Origin: Candidatus Thorarchaeota archaeon
Lineage (GTDB): Archaea > Asgardarchaeota > Thorarchaeia > Thorarchaeales > Thorarchaeaceae
NCBI GenBank assembly: GCA_046482545.1
Contig: JAWOEX010000005.1
Location: 1-17,926 of the forward strand
Length of the DNA: 17,926 bases
Reading direction: 5' to 3'
Of this stretch, positions 9,907 through 15,657 are shown in pieces. Positions within the stretch are counted from its first letter, which is position 1. Every line of letters begins with the position of its first letter. The notes below the pieces were generated by a model that saw nothing but the letters and a program-made list of their open reading frames with translations, ran no database searches and was not told the origin of the DNA. A program made the translations under genes and the position numbers.

Positions 9907-10732
9907 CCGAGTACCCTCCCAGCATGAGTTTTCGTCTCTCGTTCTCACGACAGCCGTTAAGCGCTTCCACAAGCTCTGGGTGTTTCCTTAGCATCTGGTT
10001 GTCATGGAGCACCTCGGCCAAGTGGTTCCAGATATGTATCGAGTCGTCGAGAATCCTATCCCGGATGGCTCGTACCACATCCTTATCGTTCCGCAGCCAG
10101 TCAAGGTGTCGCAGAAGGAGAATCTCATCGGTAAGGTGTTTCTCATTTCGTATCCTGTTCACGATGTCCGGTTTCGCAGCCAGGATGGCCTGCTTGATGG
10201 CATCTTGCTCAGCAAGGTATGGGATGCTGACGATAAGAGAAGCATCATGCCAGTTCTCTTCTGCACGTGCGATGAGATGGTCCAGTCGTCCAAGCGTTGC
10301 TCGTTTGATACTCGGATGTTTGTGCAACCCGTAGCCTGCCGCTACATGCAACTGGAAAATGATACTTGAACACGTTGCGATATTGTCCGCGATAGCCTCC
10401 TGAATTTCGGGGATACCAAGGAATCCCCGGATGGCACAGAGTGCATCAATAAGCAGACTGTCTCCCTGCCGCAGCGCTTCAGCAACGGTCTGTCGAATCT
10501 CTGGTTCCTCCCAGAGCTCATCCACCCTGCTCATGACAAAACAGAAACAGTGAGCGACCTTGGGATTGAGAATGACTCTGTGGGTCAGCGATGCGATGGT
10601 TCCATCGGTTCTGTACAGTTCCAGGAAGCGTTCTTTGTTGATGTTCAGGGTGTCTACTGCTGACCTATCCCGTTCTGATGTTGTAAGATAGCTCAGTATA
10701 CCGCGGATATCTGTTTGTTCAGAGACACTCAC
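9896..10732 (-). CDS. Hypothetical alpha-helical repeat (solenoid-like) protein
   Basis: Start re-assigned to GTG 10732 (GGAGG upstream; 2 nt after the TBP stop). Contains six degenerate L-x3-P-x-I-x2-AI repeats. Confidence 0.75.
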   Translation of the reverse strand: MSVSEQTDIRGILSYLTTSERDRSAVDTLNINKERFLELYRTDGTIASLTHRVILNPKVAHCFCFVMSRVDELWEEPEIRQTVAEALRQGDSLLIDALCAIRGFLGIPEIQEAIADNIATCSSIIFQLHVAAGYGLHKHPSIKRATLGRLDHLIARAEENWHDASLIVSIPYLAEQDAIKQAILAAKPDIVNRIRNEKHLTDEILLLRHLDWLRNDKDVVRAIRDRILDDSIHIWNHLAEVLHDNQMLRKHPELVEALNGCRENERRKLMLGGYSVVG

Positions 10733-10734
10733 TT

Positions 10735-11313
10735 CTACTCCTCCATACAACCAAGCTCAGCAAGGCGGCTCACGGTCTCCTGCGCATACGCTTCGACTTC
10801 CGATTCCGTTCGTGCACCTGTTACCGTTATCTTGCCCTGACTGAAGAGAGAGATAGAAATCCCGGGTGTTGGCTTGTAGATCAATCCCGGGAATTGCTCA
10901 GGTTCATACACGCTGTATTCCAACTTCATGGATGCCAGTTCGATGTTGATGCTTGAACCGGTCGTTACCGTTGCAACGATATTGTGTACCTGTATGACAG
11001 GGTCCGAATCGACAGTAATGCGCTTCTCGCGTATGAGCTCCACGGTCTTCCGTATCGCCTCGATTGATACTTCTTTGGATTTGCATCCTACCGCCACTAT
11101 CGTTCCCTTTGAATACATGACCAGGACTGCTTCAGGCTCATCCATGCGGTAGATGATGCCTCTGTATTTGGGTTCGAACTCGACATTTCGCAGGGATGCA
11201 GCGATTTCGTCTAGGTCAAGACGATGTGGAAACTGGGCAGATACCATCACATTCCGAATATCGATGCTGTCGATTGAGCTATCGCATACTGCTTCAACCA
11301 TCGTCGTTGCCAT
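10735..11313 (-). CDS. tbp: TATA-box-binding protein, divergent paralogue
   Basis: Two TBP repeats: IRNVMVS..LDLDEIA..EFEPKYRGIIYR..MYSKGTIVAVGCKS and VHNIVAT..YEPEQFPGLIY..LFSQGKITVTGART. GGAGG upstream. Confidence 0.93.
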   Translation of the reverse strand: MATTMVEAVCDSSIDSIDIRNVMVSAQFPHRLDLDEIAASLRNVEFEPKYRGIIYRMDEPEAVLVMYSKGTIVAVGCKSKEVSIEAIRKTVELIREKRITVDSDPVIQVHNIVATVTTGSSINIELASMKLEYSVYEPEQFPGLIYKPTPGISISLFSQGKITVTGARTESEVEAYAQETVSRLAELGCMEE

Positions 11314-11315
11314 CG

Positions 11316-11627
11316 CTATCCCTCCTGTGCTACCATACCACTGCTATTGCCCGAGTTGTGCAGAGGGTTCCCTCGTACAGGAAGCTGCCTGTATGGAGCT
11401 ATTCTATCCAGACAGTTCAGTAAGACCTTCACATCGTTGTACGCACCGTTTGCCTGCAACAGTCCACATACCCGTTCAGTATTCAGACTGTTGTGCTCGC
11501 AGAACGCTTCAACGTGCTTGTAGGGGCGATATTCCCCTGTGGGCTTGCGGTCGAAGACCTCCACCAAATAGAGTACAAGATCTCCAAACAGTCTCGAATT
11601 CGGAACCGGGACCGGTTGGTCTTCCAT
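11316..11627 (-). CDS. DUF2695-like small protein
   Basis: HVEAFCEHNSLNTERVCGLLQANGAYNDVKVLLN parallels the DUF2695 pattern (F....GL..E.V..WL..NGGYCDCEVLLN). A strong archaeal RBS GAGGTGAT precedes the ATG. Confidence 0.65.
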   Translation of the reverse strand: MEDQPVPVPNSRLFGDLVLYLVEVFDRKPTGEYRPYKHVEAFCEHNSLNTERVCGLLQANGAYNDVKVLLNCLDRIAPYRQLPVRGNPLHNSGNSSGMVAQEG

Positions 11628-13172
11628 TCATATCACCTCACAGAGAGAGAGCACATTGGTGTCGGTGGTCAGGGGCACCGGTTTGGCCTGTAAGTGGTGG
11701 TTCCTCACCCGACGTTCAAAGACAGAGCTGTGCATGTTGTACAGGACTGTTGGACCGAGCGCCCCTGTTTCTCTGACAACGCGGAACTCCTCGTTGCTTG
11801 CTTTCATCGCATCCTCGTAGGCTGATACGAACTCCACTGCATCAACCTGATCCTGCTGGAACATCGCTGCGATAGCATAATGCCCCAGCCCATCCTCGAT
11901 AAGGCCGACCACGCTGTAATCGAGTACTTCGTACCCGGTTTTCTCGGATGCTCGTCGTATGGCGTTTGCCACGTGTGCTTCACTGATCTTCTCACCTGAC
12001 AGGTTCACGACGTTACCGCGGCGGCTTACGGACCGGATAGTGTAGGGGTCTGTGCTTTCAAACGTCACCATGTCCCCGATTCTATAGCGATAATAGCCCT
12101 GCACGTTCGTTATGACTATCTCATAGCGGCTTCCAGCTTTCACATCGGTTAGTGGTAAAACATCTGGTTTCTCGTTCACCTGATCTTCAGGAATGAACTC
12201 GAAGTAGTTGGTCGTGGTGAACAGTTGCATGCCCTCAGTGTCAGCACAAAGCTGCCCTGCAAAGACTCCTTCGGATGCACCATAGATATCCCACATGACC
12301 AGATTCGGAATGTTTCTCGTCAGCCATTTCCTGTATGGGTCAGGATCTATCCCCGATGCTAGAAACAATCTAAGGTTGGGCCACAATTCGCCGATATCAA
12401 GGGTGCCGTCATCCTGAAGGGCGTTCCTTATTCTCGATTCGTGTTTGGTTCCGGCCAGCTTGTCAAGCAACCACGGACCGTAGTGGTTCTGCATCCTTCG
12501 AATCAACGCAAGAGATAGTGTGGTTATACCCTGCAGGCCGGTAACGTCACACGTTGCCATGAGTTCGGCGTACGCATGCATCTTCTTGTCCATGTCGTCT
12601 ATGTTGAACACATCTTCGCCCGGCTCGATAAGCCGCTGGAACAGCGCGTTCTGATTTCTAGCGTATACGCCGGTGGCATACCCAACCGGGACGCCGTTGA
12701 TGTAATCCATCTCTGGAGCTGCACCAAAGGTCACAAGGGTTCCATCCACTATCTTGGGATTCTCCGGGTCGGCGTTCATGAACGCCATCCAGGTGAGAGC
12801 TGTTACGCCACTGACATCCTTGAGTCCCTGCTTGGTGATAGGCAACCGTTTTGGTTTGCCAGTCGTACCCGATGTTTGCAAGTACCAGTAAACAGGGTCT
12901 TTCGTCAGGATGCCTCCGCTTGGATCAGCATACGTCAGCTTGTAGTACGGCTTCATACTCTGATAATCCGAAAGCGGGACCCGTTCCCTGAACTGGTCAG
13001 GGGTTGTTATCTGCTCAAAGCTAAACTGCTTGCCCAGGAGTGTCTCCCGGTGCCGATGCAGAATGGACATGAGCTTCTCTTCGCTGAGCTCGATAGGGTT
13101 GTTCAGTATCTCATCGATGCTTTTCTGTTTGTGTTTCGCGTAGAACGAAACAAGTCGTCTCATAATCGACAT
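11628..13172 (-). CDS. GH3 family acyl-adenylate-forming (acyl acid-amido synthetase-like) protein
   Basis: FRERVPLSDY, P-loop TSGTTGKPK, YGASEG, YFEFIP, YEIVITN, YRYRIGD and GEK motifs. Start re-assigned to ATG 13172 (GGAGG upstream). Confidence 0.92.
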   Translation of the reverse strand: MSIMRRLVSFYAKHKQKSIDEILNNPIELSEEKLMSILHRHRETLLGKQFSFEQITTPDQFRERVPLSDYQSMKPYYKLTYADPSGGILTKDPVYWYLQTSGTTGKPKRLPITKQGLKDVSGVTALTWMAFMNADPENPKIVDGTLVTFGAAPEMDYINGVPVGYATGVYARNQNALFQRLIEPGEDVFNIDDMDKKMHAYAELMATCDVTGLQGITTLSLALIRRMQNHYGPWLLDKLAGTKHESRIRNALQDDGTLDIGELWPNLRLFLASGIDPDPYRKWLTRNIPNLVMWDIYGASEGVFAGQLCADTEGMQLFTTTNYFEFIPEDQVNEKPDVLPLTDVKAGSRYEIVITNVQGYYRYRIGDMVTFESTDPYTIRSVSRRGNVVNLSGEKISEAHVANAIRRASEKTGYEVLDYSVVGLIEDGLGHYAIAAMFQQDQVDAVEFVSAYEDAMKASNEEFRVVRETGALGPTVLYNMHSSVFERRVRNHHLQAKPVPLTTDTNVLSLCEVI

Positions 13173-13249: not shown

Positions 13250-13272
13250 CATAGGTTGAGACCACTTACGCG

Positions 13273-13439
13273 GAATGAGCGCCCAGACAGCGATATTGAG
13301 GTTCAATAGACGCTCCACCATATTCATTCTATCTTAAAATCCGTAGAATCGTCTAAGCGGTTCTATGATTGCTCAGTTCGGAAGTGCTTTGCCGATTTTT
13401 CCCGGTAAATGGCCTATCTTGGCGCCATATTGTGTAACA
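13273..13439. repeat. Conserved intergenic element, copy 1
   Basis: Shares GAATGAGCG, GGTTCA, CGCTCCACCATATT, TCTTAA, AAGCG, CTCAG, GAAGT, GCTTTGCCGATTTTTCCCGGT and GCGCCATAT, in order, with 15479-15657. Confidence 0.9.
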
Positions 13440-13707
13440 CAGTACCCGATTGCACATTTCATTCATATGAAGAAGACATGCCGGCTGGTTCAGAAGTCGA
13501 CATCATTTCAATCTCCAGAACTCCAATCTCTAGAAAGAATGACTGTGAACAGGGATTGGAGATTGTCTTGGTTTGCTGGCTTGTCTGATGATTTCATGTT
13601 GAATAGCCATACCATAGATAGAGTATACGAAAGCGCGCTAAGTATGCTTGAATGGGGACATAGTCTCTTCATCGCTATCATCTCTGACAAAATTCGGGAA
13701 GGTCAGT

Positions 13708-14391
13708 CTAGTGATGTCTATTCGCCCACTCTTCCCATTCCTTCATTATGACCAATACACAAACAATACCAAGGGCGCCTAGGGGAAAAAGAGCATCCCG
13801 GTAAGGTTTCAGCCAAGAGATATTGTAGTGGGTAACATTCAGGTCGAGCTCAACACTGATACCGAAAGTTCCCGCATCCTCCGCTTTGATCTCTGTCTGA
13901 AGAGTCCAGTTCCCCATAACAACAAGTGGTTCCCGTCCGGTCGAGTTCAGACTAAAATACCAAACAGGGGAGAACGAAAAGTCACCACCGGGGCCGACTC
14001 CACCAACATGGAGGCCAAAGGAACGACTCTTGTTACCGTACCGTATCAAATACGAGGGGGTTAAACTAAAACTGGAAAGACCAAGATAACCGACGGAATT
14101 CACCTTGCCATACCAAGACACATTGTGAAACCTGTATCCTCTCCCCCCTCTCATTATAGGAGAAAATCGCACGGTGGTATTCCTTCGGTCATCCGATTGA
14201 TTGAAATTCATCGTGATATTGAAGCCAGAGGATTCCATTTCCGAGATACCCTTTTCGGTCACAAGAACATGATAGGAAGCATGCTGTATTGAACGTGAGA
14301 TGTCCTCCGAAAGGGCAACGAAAGTAAGAGAAACAGTAATTGCAGTGATCACAAGTGCAGCTACTCCCCGAGACTTCCATTCTCGCTGCAT
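13708..14391 (-). CDS. Hypothetical membrane-anchored extracellular protein
   Basis: N-terminal signal/TM, beta-rich middle with several N-x-S/T sequons, and a C-terminal TM. GGAG upstream. Confidence 0.75.
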   Translation of the reverse strand: MQREWKSRGVAALVITAITVSLTFVALSEDISRSIQHASYHVLVTEKGISEMESSGFNITMNFNQSDDRRNTTVRFSPIMRGGRGYRFHNVSWYGKVNSVGYLGLSSFSLTPSYLIRYGNKSRSFGLHVGGVGPGGDFSFSPVWYFSLNSTGREPLVVMGNWTLQTEIKAEDAGTFGISVELDLNVTHYNISWLKPYRDALFPLGALGIVCVLVIMKEWEEWANRHH

Positions 14392-14474
14392 CTCTCAGTT
14401 CTCCGTGACCAGCGGAGATGGTAAGGGAATGGTATCCTTAATGCTTTCGCTCTCTCAAACTGTGTCTGCCATCT

Positions 14475-15087
14475 TCACTCACTGAACCAAATTCCTACAC
14501 CATCAAGTGCATCCGGTTCCGATTGGCTCCAATCATGGTCAGAATTAATCCAGAAGTCGAGAGTATTTTGGTCTTTGTAATAATATGCCGCTTCCCATGT
14601 CTCACAGCTTTCCTCTATCGCCAAGGCTTCTATTTTGAAAGAAAGGCAGCCGTTAGAGACTGTAAATCCAGCACCCATTTTATGGTTTGTTTCATACGTA
14701 TACCAGAATGCCTCCGCTTCACCAACCAGTCCCAGTATCGGACAGACCGTGCCAAGGTTGCCCGATGCTTCGATGTAATGTGGATCATGTTTAGTAGCCT
14801 GTTGGTATGCTTGCTTCACTTCTTCGTTCATACCCGCCCGCTGGTATTTCATACCGGCTCTCACGAGCTCAAGGGCTCATTTGTTCATCGTCATGTTATC
14901 AACGACCATCAGGCAGCTGTAACAAAGCCAGAATCTGAGAAGCCTCGTTAAACCTCCCAGCAATGCGGTACGCATGATACAGCTGGGTTAGAAGATGTGT
15001 ATCTCCTGGTGTCTTGTCAACTTGGTGTTCAAGCACGCTCACAGGCAGAGTGCAAAAATCGTTCTTCTCAGAGATTGTTGGATTCAT
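14475..15087 (-). pseudogene. Disrupted TPR-repeat protein gene
   Basis: TPR-like segments PGDTHLLTQLYHAYRIAGRFNEA (15087-14899) and ALELVRAGMKYQRAGMNEEVKQAYQQATKHDPHYIEASGNLG lie in different frames, with an intervening TGA at ~14877-14879. Confidence 0.65.
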
Positions 15088-15096
15088 TCCTGCACC

Positions 15097-15405
15097 TCAG
15101 CATGTAGAGGACTCGACCCTATCATGTTGGTTATCGGATATCCCTCCATCTGAATGATGTTCATAGGGTCCGCCCTCCTGTCTTATGCACCCGAATGCAT
15201 AGCTGACAGCTACGAAATCAGGGAATGGACTACCGAGTTCTATCTTGGCAACATCCACAAGATCAAGGGCGTTCCGCCGGACCGTGGTTGTAGGTAAGGA
15301 GTTTTGGGATGTGTCAGAATCATCTCTGTTCTGAAGGCCAGACGGGACTTCGTTCGTCGTCGGTGTTGCTTCGTTGATGTCGGGTTCCATCCTCTTTACC
15401 CCCAT
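15097..15405 (-). CDS. Hypothetical protein, possibly decayed
   Basis: 102-codon ORF with a low-complexity N-terminus. A BRE/TATA-like CGAAAGGTTGATA lies upstream (~15461-15449). The likely start is ATG 15390. Confidence 0.4.
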   Translation of the reverse strand: MGVKRMEPDINEATPTTNEVPSGLQNRDDSDTSQNSLPTTTVRRNALDLVDVAKIELGSPFPDFVAVSYAFGCIRQEGGPYEHHSDGGISDNQHDRVESSTC

Positions 15406-15478
15406 CCAAGTACAGGATGATGGCTGGCTATATAGGCGAAATCGCTAGTATCAACCTTTCGGTCAACCCCCCTAGGAA

Positions 15479-15657
15479 GAATGAGCGTTCTCTCGGTCGT
15501 TCTAACGGTTCATATGCGCTCCACCATATTTAGACTCTTCTTAATTTCCTAAAATAACGAAAAGCGTGTTATGCGTTCTCAGATTGAAGTCGCTTTGCCG
15601 ATTTTTCCCGGTCATACAATAATCATCGAAAGTATTAGAGCGCCATATATGGAAACA
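15479..15657. repeat. Conserved intergenic element, copy 2
   Basis: Same ordered blocks as 13273-13439, in the same orientation, offset 2206 bp. Confidence 0.9.

Follow-up and report, generated by a model that had tools for sequence, protein, structure and literature searches.

A putative promoter or operator module with two rigidly spaced boxes upstream of recombination and surface-protein operons in a Thorarchaeote

The DNA analysed here, hereafter the window, is a 17,926-nt stretch of contig JAWOEX010000005.1 (contig C31 of a 3.05-Mb Thorarchaeote assembly; genome label G000, genus g1), and it carries two copies of an intergenic element, at 13273-13406 and 15479-15612, built from short conserved boxes at fixed distances. 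In our judgement the element is probably, though by no means certainly, a composite promoter or operator module peculiar to this lineage; it would mark out a small regulon and be read by a putative co-evolving factor. A first-pass annotation of the window had offered a multi-site protein-binding regulatory element as one explanation. The regulatory part of that proposal is the best fit because of the number of copies, the matched loci, the fixed orientation and distance to the downstream gene, the invariant 61-nt spacer and the concerted change of box letters between species, while the binding of a protein is a step that we infer. To our knowledge, gene regulation in Asgard archaea is almost wholly uncharted.

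Copies, boxes and geometry

In the window, the 9-mer GAATGAGCG was located at 13273 and 15479, the 14-mer CGCTCCACCATATT at 13311 and 15517, and an identical 21-mer at 13386 and 15592, each pair at an offset of +2206, and GCGCCATAT at 13422 and 15640 (offset +2218), exactly as the first-pass annotation had read them. Gapless identity at +2206 over 13273-13406 was 86/134, against 33.5 ± 5.1 for random pairs of 134-nt stretches taken from the window, and MAFFT aligned 13273-13406 with 15479-15612 with zero gaps. The compensating 1-nt indels formerly assumed in the spacers are unnecessary, because the spacer between the two main boxes aligns at 31/61 positions without gaps. To the right of the 21-mer, identity between the two copies fell to background level (21/60). 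Two features formerly ascribed to both copies did not generalize: the GAGCG/CGCTC inverted pair is not present in other copies, and the GCCG/CGGT hairpin is broken in four of the six main-type copies of the sister species described below. GCGCCATAT occurs elsewhere only in the copy on contig C20, in a weaker form, and is otherwise confined to the two window copies.

The element is a family. The 21-mer occurs six times in the genome, twice in the window, three times on contig C9 (213800, 229902 and 234282; loci C9a, C9b and C9c) and once, with 1 mismatch, at the start of contig C18. A profile search with nhmmer added a diverged seventh copy at C20 235772-235877 and no other credible match, so the genome holds six main (exact-box) copies and one diverged copy. 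Such a search of the genome and its relatives had been recommended, and it returned seven copies here and five or six per sister species. As further copies exist and the decay is not uniform, the finding stands: the two window copies are not a local duplication.

All seven copies are gap-free over a 106-nt unit whose parts are box A (13 nt, GCTCCACCATATT), a 61-nt spacer of invariant length and box B (21 nt, GCTTTGCCGATTTTTCCCGGT). Across the six main copies the letters of box A are 100% identical, and box B is identical in five, the remaining copy having 1 mismatch; identity among these paralogues is 100% for box A, 48% for the spacer and 98% for box B. The outer edge of box B is sharp, and the sequence past it is unrelated among copies. 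The starts of boxes A and B are 74 bp apart, or about 7 helical turns. A third block, box C, which contains GAATGAGCG, lies exactly 30 nt gene-ward of box A; at this offset, 13 copies have a CATATA-like or CTCATTC-like block, CATATA-like in most. In copy 1, box B occupies 13386-13406 on the minus strand, distal to the downstream operon with its outer edge at 13406, and is followed by a semi-conserved middle block (13362-13375; YTATR and GCTCAG-like letters in a fixed column of all 14 aligned copies), an A/T-rich TATA-like octamer in the spacer (13332-13340, in the same columns of nearly all copies), the operon-proximal box A (13311-13324, minus strand) and box C (13271-13282, minus strand). 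In copy 2, the corresponding features are box B at 15592-15612 (the 21-mer match), an A/T-rich TATA-like stretch at 15538-15557, box A at 15517-15530 (the 14-mer match) and box C at 15477-15488 at the same offset, the three boxes again on the minus strand.

The position of the copies relative to genes is also fixed. All six copies with a known neighbour have a single orientation and lie 113-147 nt, counted from box A, upstream of the start of a minus-sense gene. Open reading frames (ORFs) and Pfam matches bore out the earlier observation that both window copies stand upstream of a minus-strand unit and that copy 1 precedes the GH3-TBP-RadA operon. A motif of fixed orientation and distance upstream of several units, with boxes 98-100% identical against 48% for the spacer and kept at orthologous loci, is what would be expected of an operator or upstream activating sequence. 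In the proposed module, read in the sense of the minus-strand operon, box B would be followed by the semi-conserved block, the A/T-rich TATA-like box and box A, then by exactly 30 nt to box C and a further 60-100 nt to the Shine-Dalgarno sequence and start codon. One or two dedicated factors with sequence specificity would dock at boxes A and B, which would keep them in register on one face of the helix. The module would mark a regulon of 6-7 transcription units, whose predicted products are extra recombination proteins (RadA paralogues, XPD helicase and GH3 ligase cassettes) and surface proteins.

A functionless remnant, such as a decaying duplication, the end of a miniature inverted-repeat transposable element (MITE) or insertion sequence (IS), or a dead gene, would fit the distance of just 2.2 kb between the window copies and the fact that cassettes in this region do duplicate. 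We give this explanation almost no weight. It does not account for boxes that are nearly invariant beside a diverged spacer, nor for the fact that four contigs and two more species hold further copies. The copies are flanked by neither terminal inverted repeats nor target-site duplications, the homology unit runs into the gene, and matched copies sit at conserved loci, which is unlike a MITE or IS end. No reading frame stays open from copy to copy, as 11-14 of the 14 have stops in each of the six frames, and exact scans with box B of public metagenome and genome collections returned chance matches only (bacteria and a eukaryote-like repeat). The mobile element and the decayed gene considered in the first-pass annotation were thus both set aside. 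A micropeptide encoded by box B was likewise rejected, as there is no conserved start, three copies have an immediate stop and all frames contain stops.

Matched loci, concerted letters and junctions at box B

Relatives were searched with a sequence-only covariance model. Two other species of genus g1, G078 and G079, carry 5-6 copies each. Seven of these are at loci matching those of G000, three in G078 and four in G079: the C9a, C9b and C9c loci are matched in both species, and the C20 copy in G079. Synteny is kept around the matched loci, and the 16.1-kb spacing from C9a to C9b is kept in G078. The sequences of the main-type copies in these two species are GCTCCAACATATT, with two copies starting in ACT, and TTGGCCGTnTTTTCCCG, with one starting in CTGG.

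Between G000 and the matching loci, identity is 90% for box A, 63% for the spacer and 79% for box B. Conservation is highest in the boxes when old paralogues are compared, whereas orthologues have retained box B hardly better than the spacer. Three letter differences from G000 are fixed at all three matched main-type loci, and in box A a single C-to-A change is fixed in every main-type copy of the sister species. The letters have changed in concert at all matched main-type loci, which suggests a shared trans-acting partner. Under the promoter or operator reading, the specificity of the factor would drift between species, with all sites following. Conversion tracts as the cause of the concerted change would have to be limited to two short boxes, and were judged unlikely.

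Comparable arrangements were found in other genera, in other letters. In genus g2 (G003) the two boxes are others, namely AAAAAAGCTAC and one of 19 nt that includes TTATTAAG, and a rigid 60-nt spacer separates them. The pair has exactly three copies in that genome, before the orthologues of GH3, of p268 (the first gene of the RadA/XPD operon at C9b) and of p200 (the giant surface protein operon at C9a), and G026 has a third set of letters before the same three orthologues. The element was not definable in G053, G005 or G010, and orthologous upstream regions were not alignable across genera. GH3 and p268 are divergent neighbours in G003, G026, G005 and G053, and in G003 the intergenic region that they share (C1:915.8-916.3 kb) holds two back-to-back copies of its own two-box element. 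The idea that the G003 element is the G000 element inverted was dropped as unsupported, the box spacings differing by 8 nt.

The sharp edge of box B raised the possibility that box B is a site-specific recombination site or cassette junction, with boxes kept identical since recombination needs identical cores. Homology between paralogues stops exactly at the outer edge of box B, and at C9b a 1.3-kb segment right outside box B differs wholly between G000 and G078/G079, with homology resuming beyond. This outer segment (7923-9280 of C9:222001-242000) holds a Yip1-domain gene in G000 and an unrelated opposite-strand gene of 348 aa in G078/G079, and homology past it resumes at a RadA-like gene. 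The junction of the GH3 cassette on the window's contig falls at the same point relative to the positional copy C9c, and where a contig has more than one copy these are direct repeats. The ends of several contigs (C18 of G000, at 1-117, and C11, C12 and C135 of G078) fall inside the element or right beside it. Three G078 copies have identical sequences, which suggests that duplicated or population-variable GH3-type cassettes break the assemblies there.

These observations notwithstanding, we consider a recombination site improbable. Matched copies and their downstream operons are kept across three species, spacing included; no integrase or recombinase gene turned up among the scanned neighbours of the copies; and box B has no inverted-repeat core. 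A recombination site would also leave box A, box C and the fixed distance to the start codon unexplained. Selection for an intact promoter would likewise put surviving breakpoints just outside the outermost box, and the junction pattern at box B would also be explained by such selection together with the short upstream intergenic space (~35 nt at the C9a locus). An integron-like cassette site (attC) is improbable even with the variable segments next to box B, there being no stable hairpin and no recombinase among the scanned neighbours.

Core promoter, candidate readers and a possible divergent RNA

Three TATA-like blocks lie at fixed positions, namely the spacer block (13332-13340), the AATAT core of box A, and box C. 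The spacer block is similar to the TATA-like boxes before tRNA genes of G000, and the purine-rich letters on its gene-distal side would fit a transcription factor B recognition element (BRE) for minus-sense transcription. With the spacer block as TATA box, transcription would start just gene-ward of box A, the leader would measure 110-140 nt and box B would occupy about -75 to -95; with box C in that role, box A would lie near -65 and box B near -145. The positional profile of TATA before 702 Shine-Dalgarno-led ORFs genome-wide was flat and therefore offered no calibration of leader length. On sequence grounds, both the choice of core promoter among the three blocks and the choice between activation and repression stay at the level of what we infer.

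The alternative TBP encoded in the GH3 operon had been named in the first-pass annotation as a possible reader, and the boxes might accordingly form a special promoter class read by this protein. Since the TBP paralogue is encoded in an operon that one copy precedes, this species could conceivably have an autoregulatory loop. Yet G078 (99% complete) and G079 (96%) have the element at 5-6 loci and only a canonical TBP, 45% identical to the paralogue. G026 likewise has only a canonical TBP, and the genes after GH3 are not homologous in other genera. The general reader is thus not the alternative TBP, which the sister species do not have, and we regard a promoter class of this kind as most unlikely. 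Of the five Thorarchaeote genomes checked, only that of this species has the TBP paralogue (10735-11313, minus strand); the second TBP copy of G003 is a different one, with an in-frame TAG. There are four TFB paralogues per genome, none of them adjoining a copy.

Two candidate readers emerged from sequence comparison, a MarR/Lrp-type winged-helix regulator of TTTGCC-type sites and the regulon-encoded zinc-ribbon and winged-helix protein p145. When 20 nt of box B were searched in 86 other genomes of the class with up to 2 mismatches, only one near-match was found, with 1 mismatch, in G003. This near-match immediately follows the TATA box of a MarR-like gene, and the gene is divergent from that of a regulator containing two AsnC-type helix-turn-helix (HTH) domains. 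G000 has two tandem divergent pairs of such regulators on C20 (218.4-221.6 kb), and TTTGCC-type sites recur in the intergenic region of the MarR/AsnC-type pair in five genera. The C20 pairs (5477-9599 of C20:212001-226000) comprise double AsnC-type HTH regulators of 363 and 385 aa, each with a small MarR-like winged-helix gene, and the intergenic region of the first pair contains a conserved TGGCAAA...TTTGCCA inverted repeat and a box-B-like site. A box-A-like string between the second pair was dropped as it is not conserved in the sister species.

The other candidate, p145 (C9 227083-227520; 5083-5520, minus strand, of C9:222001-242000), carries at its N terminus a CPxC...CSxCG zinc ribbon, which a basic linker joins to a winged helix at the C terminus. 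It is encoded in the RadA/XPD operon, beside the RadA paralogue, in all five genomes tested, and its identity is 68-74% within the genus and 31-35% between genera. A search of the p145 profile against solved structures gave insignificant matches only.

Several observations weigh against a promoter or operator module. Should the core promoter be box C or lie further downstream, box B would be about 150 nt upstream of the start, which is far for known archaeal regulators. An invariant run of 21 letters in six copies exceeds the uniformity of ordinary factor sites, though in the sister species it drops to 87%. At C9c the boxes are still perfect although the GH3 gene behind them is a 79-codon remnant. 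The box variants and the recognition helix of p145 do not sort together, and the operator of the candidate Lrp/MarR pair has not followed box B in its changes between the sister species, so the pair is a lead to a factor family and not an identification. In addition, the T5 run inside box B, with a second T5 just outside it in 11/14 copies, would also suit the terminator of a divergent transcript.

The last point bears on an alternative in which the element either is or additionally includes a compact gene whose product, an unstructured RNA of ~40-50 nt, would be transcribed in the direction opposite to the operon. The promoter of this gene would be formed by box A and the TATA-like box, its start by YTATR, its body by the middle block and box B, and its terminator by the T5 runs; the concerted change of box B would then follow that of an RNA partner or of a protein that binds the RNA. 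Read on the plus strand, the TATA-like octamer at 13332-13340, with its likeness to tRNA-gene boxes, precedes by about 27 nt a pyrimidine-purine step that is conserved in YTATR (13362-13367), and the second T-run (T4-T5) in 11 of 14 copies comes right after the sharp edge of box B. A T5-T7 run likewise closes the distal box of G003 and of G026 when the box is read in the outward direction, and the proximal box of G003, read the same way, is a canonical TATA octamer like that of one tRNA gene here.

Other results did not support an RNA. A search of Rfam with the whole window gave no match at E ≤ 1, and RNAalifold on 6 and on 14 copies, on both strands, returned an empty consensus and no covariation, so that the small RNA gene suggested in the first-pass annotation drew no support from these tests. 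The GCCG/CGGT hairpin is broken in most sister-species copies as described above, and the boxes of a box C/D small RNA (RUGAUGA and CUGA) are not conserved across the aligned copies. The purine-rich, BRE-like letters are on the side expected for operon-ward transcription, an invariant CCCG lies beyond the first T-run, and the second T-run is missing from three G000 copies. No antisense target of box B was found as a reverse match within 3 mismatches, and 11-mer matches were near chance. The short RNA is unlikely on balance, but the outward TATA-like/YTATR spacing and the T-runs mean that a short divergent transcript stays a live rival.

The two explanations could also be combined in a bidirectional control unit, whose outward arm would yield an RNA of ~40-50 nt. 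Box B would be the 3' module of this RNA, invariant and specific to the species, and the RNA would act in cis or in trans on the regulon. We regard this as a rather doubtful possibility. If true, the concerted letter changes would represent the co-evolution of RNA and partner, keeping a DNA exchange and cell contact system species-specific.

Compared with known systems, the proposed promoter or operator module resembles archaeal Lrp-type activator sites in kind. Upstream activating sites of archaeal Lrp/AsnC proteins include those of Ptr2 of Methanocaldococcus jannaschii and the regularly spaced boxes of Ss-LrpB, and these systems have autoregulated winged-helix factors. Shared features are boxes upstream of or around BRE/TATA, strict helical phasing and a small target set; here, by contrast, the boxes are 13 and 21 nt long, non-palindromic, 61 nt apart and flank a TATA-like box, and the factor is putative. 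Archaeal core promoters (BRE, TATA and initiator) share the fixed TATA-like octamers, the one-sided purine-rich letters and the position before Shine-Dalgarno operons; unlike this element, they have no 13-21 invariant letters common to a few genes and no concerted change between species. The element is thus unusual in three ways, in box length, in its rigid multi-block geometry and in the concerted, species-specific change of letters.

In biology, the closest likeness would be the DNA-damage regulon of Sulfolobales, in which the 5'-A(N)TTTC-3' motif of ups, ced and tfb3 is bound by Orc1-2; this motif is a hexamer at -39 to -44, before about 200 genes (PMC5817253, PMC6061795, PMC6101591). In both cases a non-palindromic upstream motif, restricted to close relatives, joins genes for cell-surface contact with genes for DNA exchange or recombination. 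The element here has two long boxes at fixed spacing before 6-7 units, in another phylum, and is unrelated in sequence to this motif and to the Lrp-type sites alike. The analogy suggests that recombination and surface operons may be switched on together, like Ups and Ced in Sulfolobales. If the promoter or operator reading is true, the element would define by sequence a regulon in Asgard archaea that links RadA paralogues, XPD and GH3 cassettes to giant or glycosylated surface proteins. Its rigid geometry and species-specific concerted letters would make it a clean system for finding the cognate factor and for following the co-evolution of regulator and site.

Operons downstream of the copies

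Copy 1 in the window is followed by genes for GH3, p103, the TBP paralogue, a repeat protein, a RadA paralogue and p347, in an operon that runs down to 7441. The first gene, for the GH3-family ligase, spans 11628-13172 on the minus strand, with its ATG at 13172 and a Shine-Dalgarno sequence, and the Pfam matches in the operon are GH3, TBP and Rad51. Elsewhere in the genome, the C9a copy precedes p200 and a surface protein of more than 2,000 aa with Ig-like and macroglobulin domains. The C9b copy precedes p268, p149, the RadA paralogue, the zinc-ribbon/winged-helix p145, p204 and the XPD helicase, and the C20 copy precedes p76 and p206. The C9c copy precedes the 79-codon GH3 remnant (11822-12061 of the C9:222001-242000 piece), which has lost its start codon and Shine-Dalgarno sequence and abuts an opposite-strand gene of the CitMHS transporter family (10188-11579 of the same piece).

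The operon behind copy 2 (13708-15405, minus strand) encodes a 102-aa protein, a TPR-like protein in two ORFs of 62 and 129 aa, and a membrane-anchored protein of 227 aa, with a weak TPR match as its sole Pfam match. The two TPR-like ORFs (14475-15087, minus strand) are about 35 nt apart (14865-14898) and may be one gene split by a frameshift or a small intron. The 227-aa protein (13708-14391, minus strand) belongs to no Pfam family; it has hydrophobic N- and C-terminal segments and about nine N-x-S/T sequons, and is probably a glycosylated surface protein.

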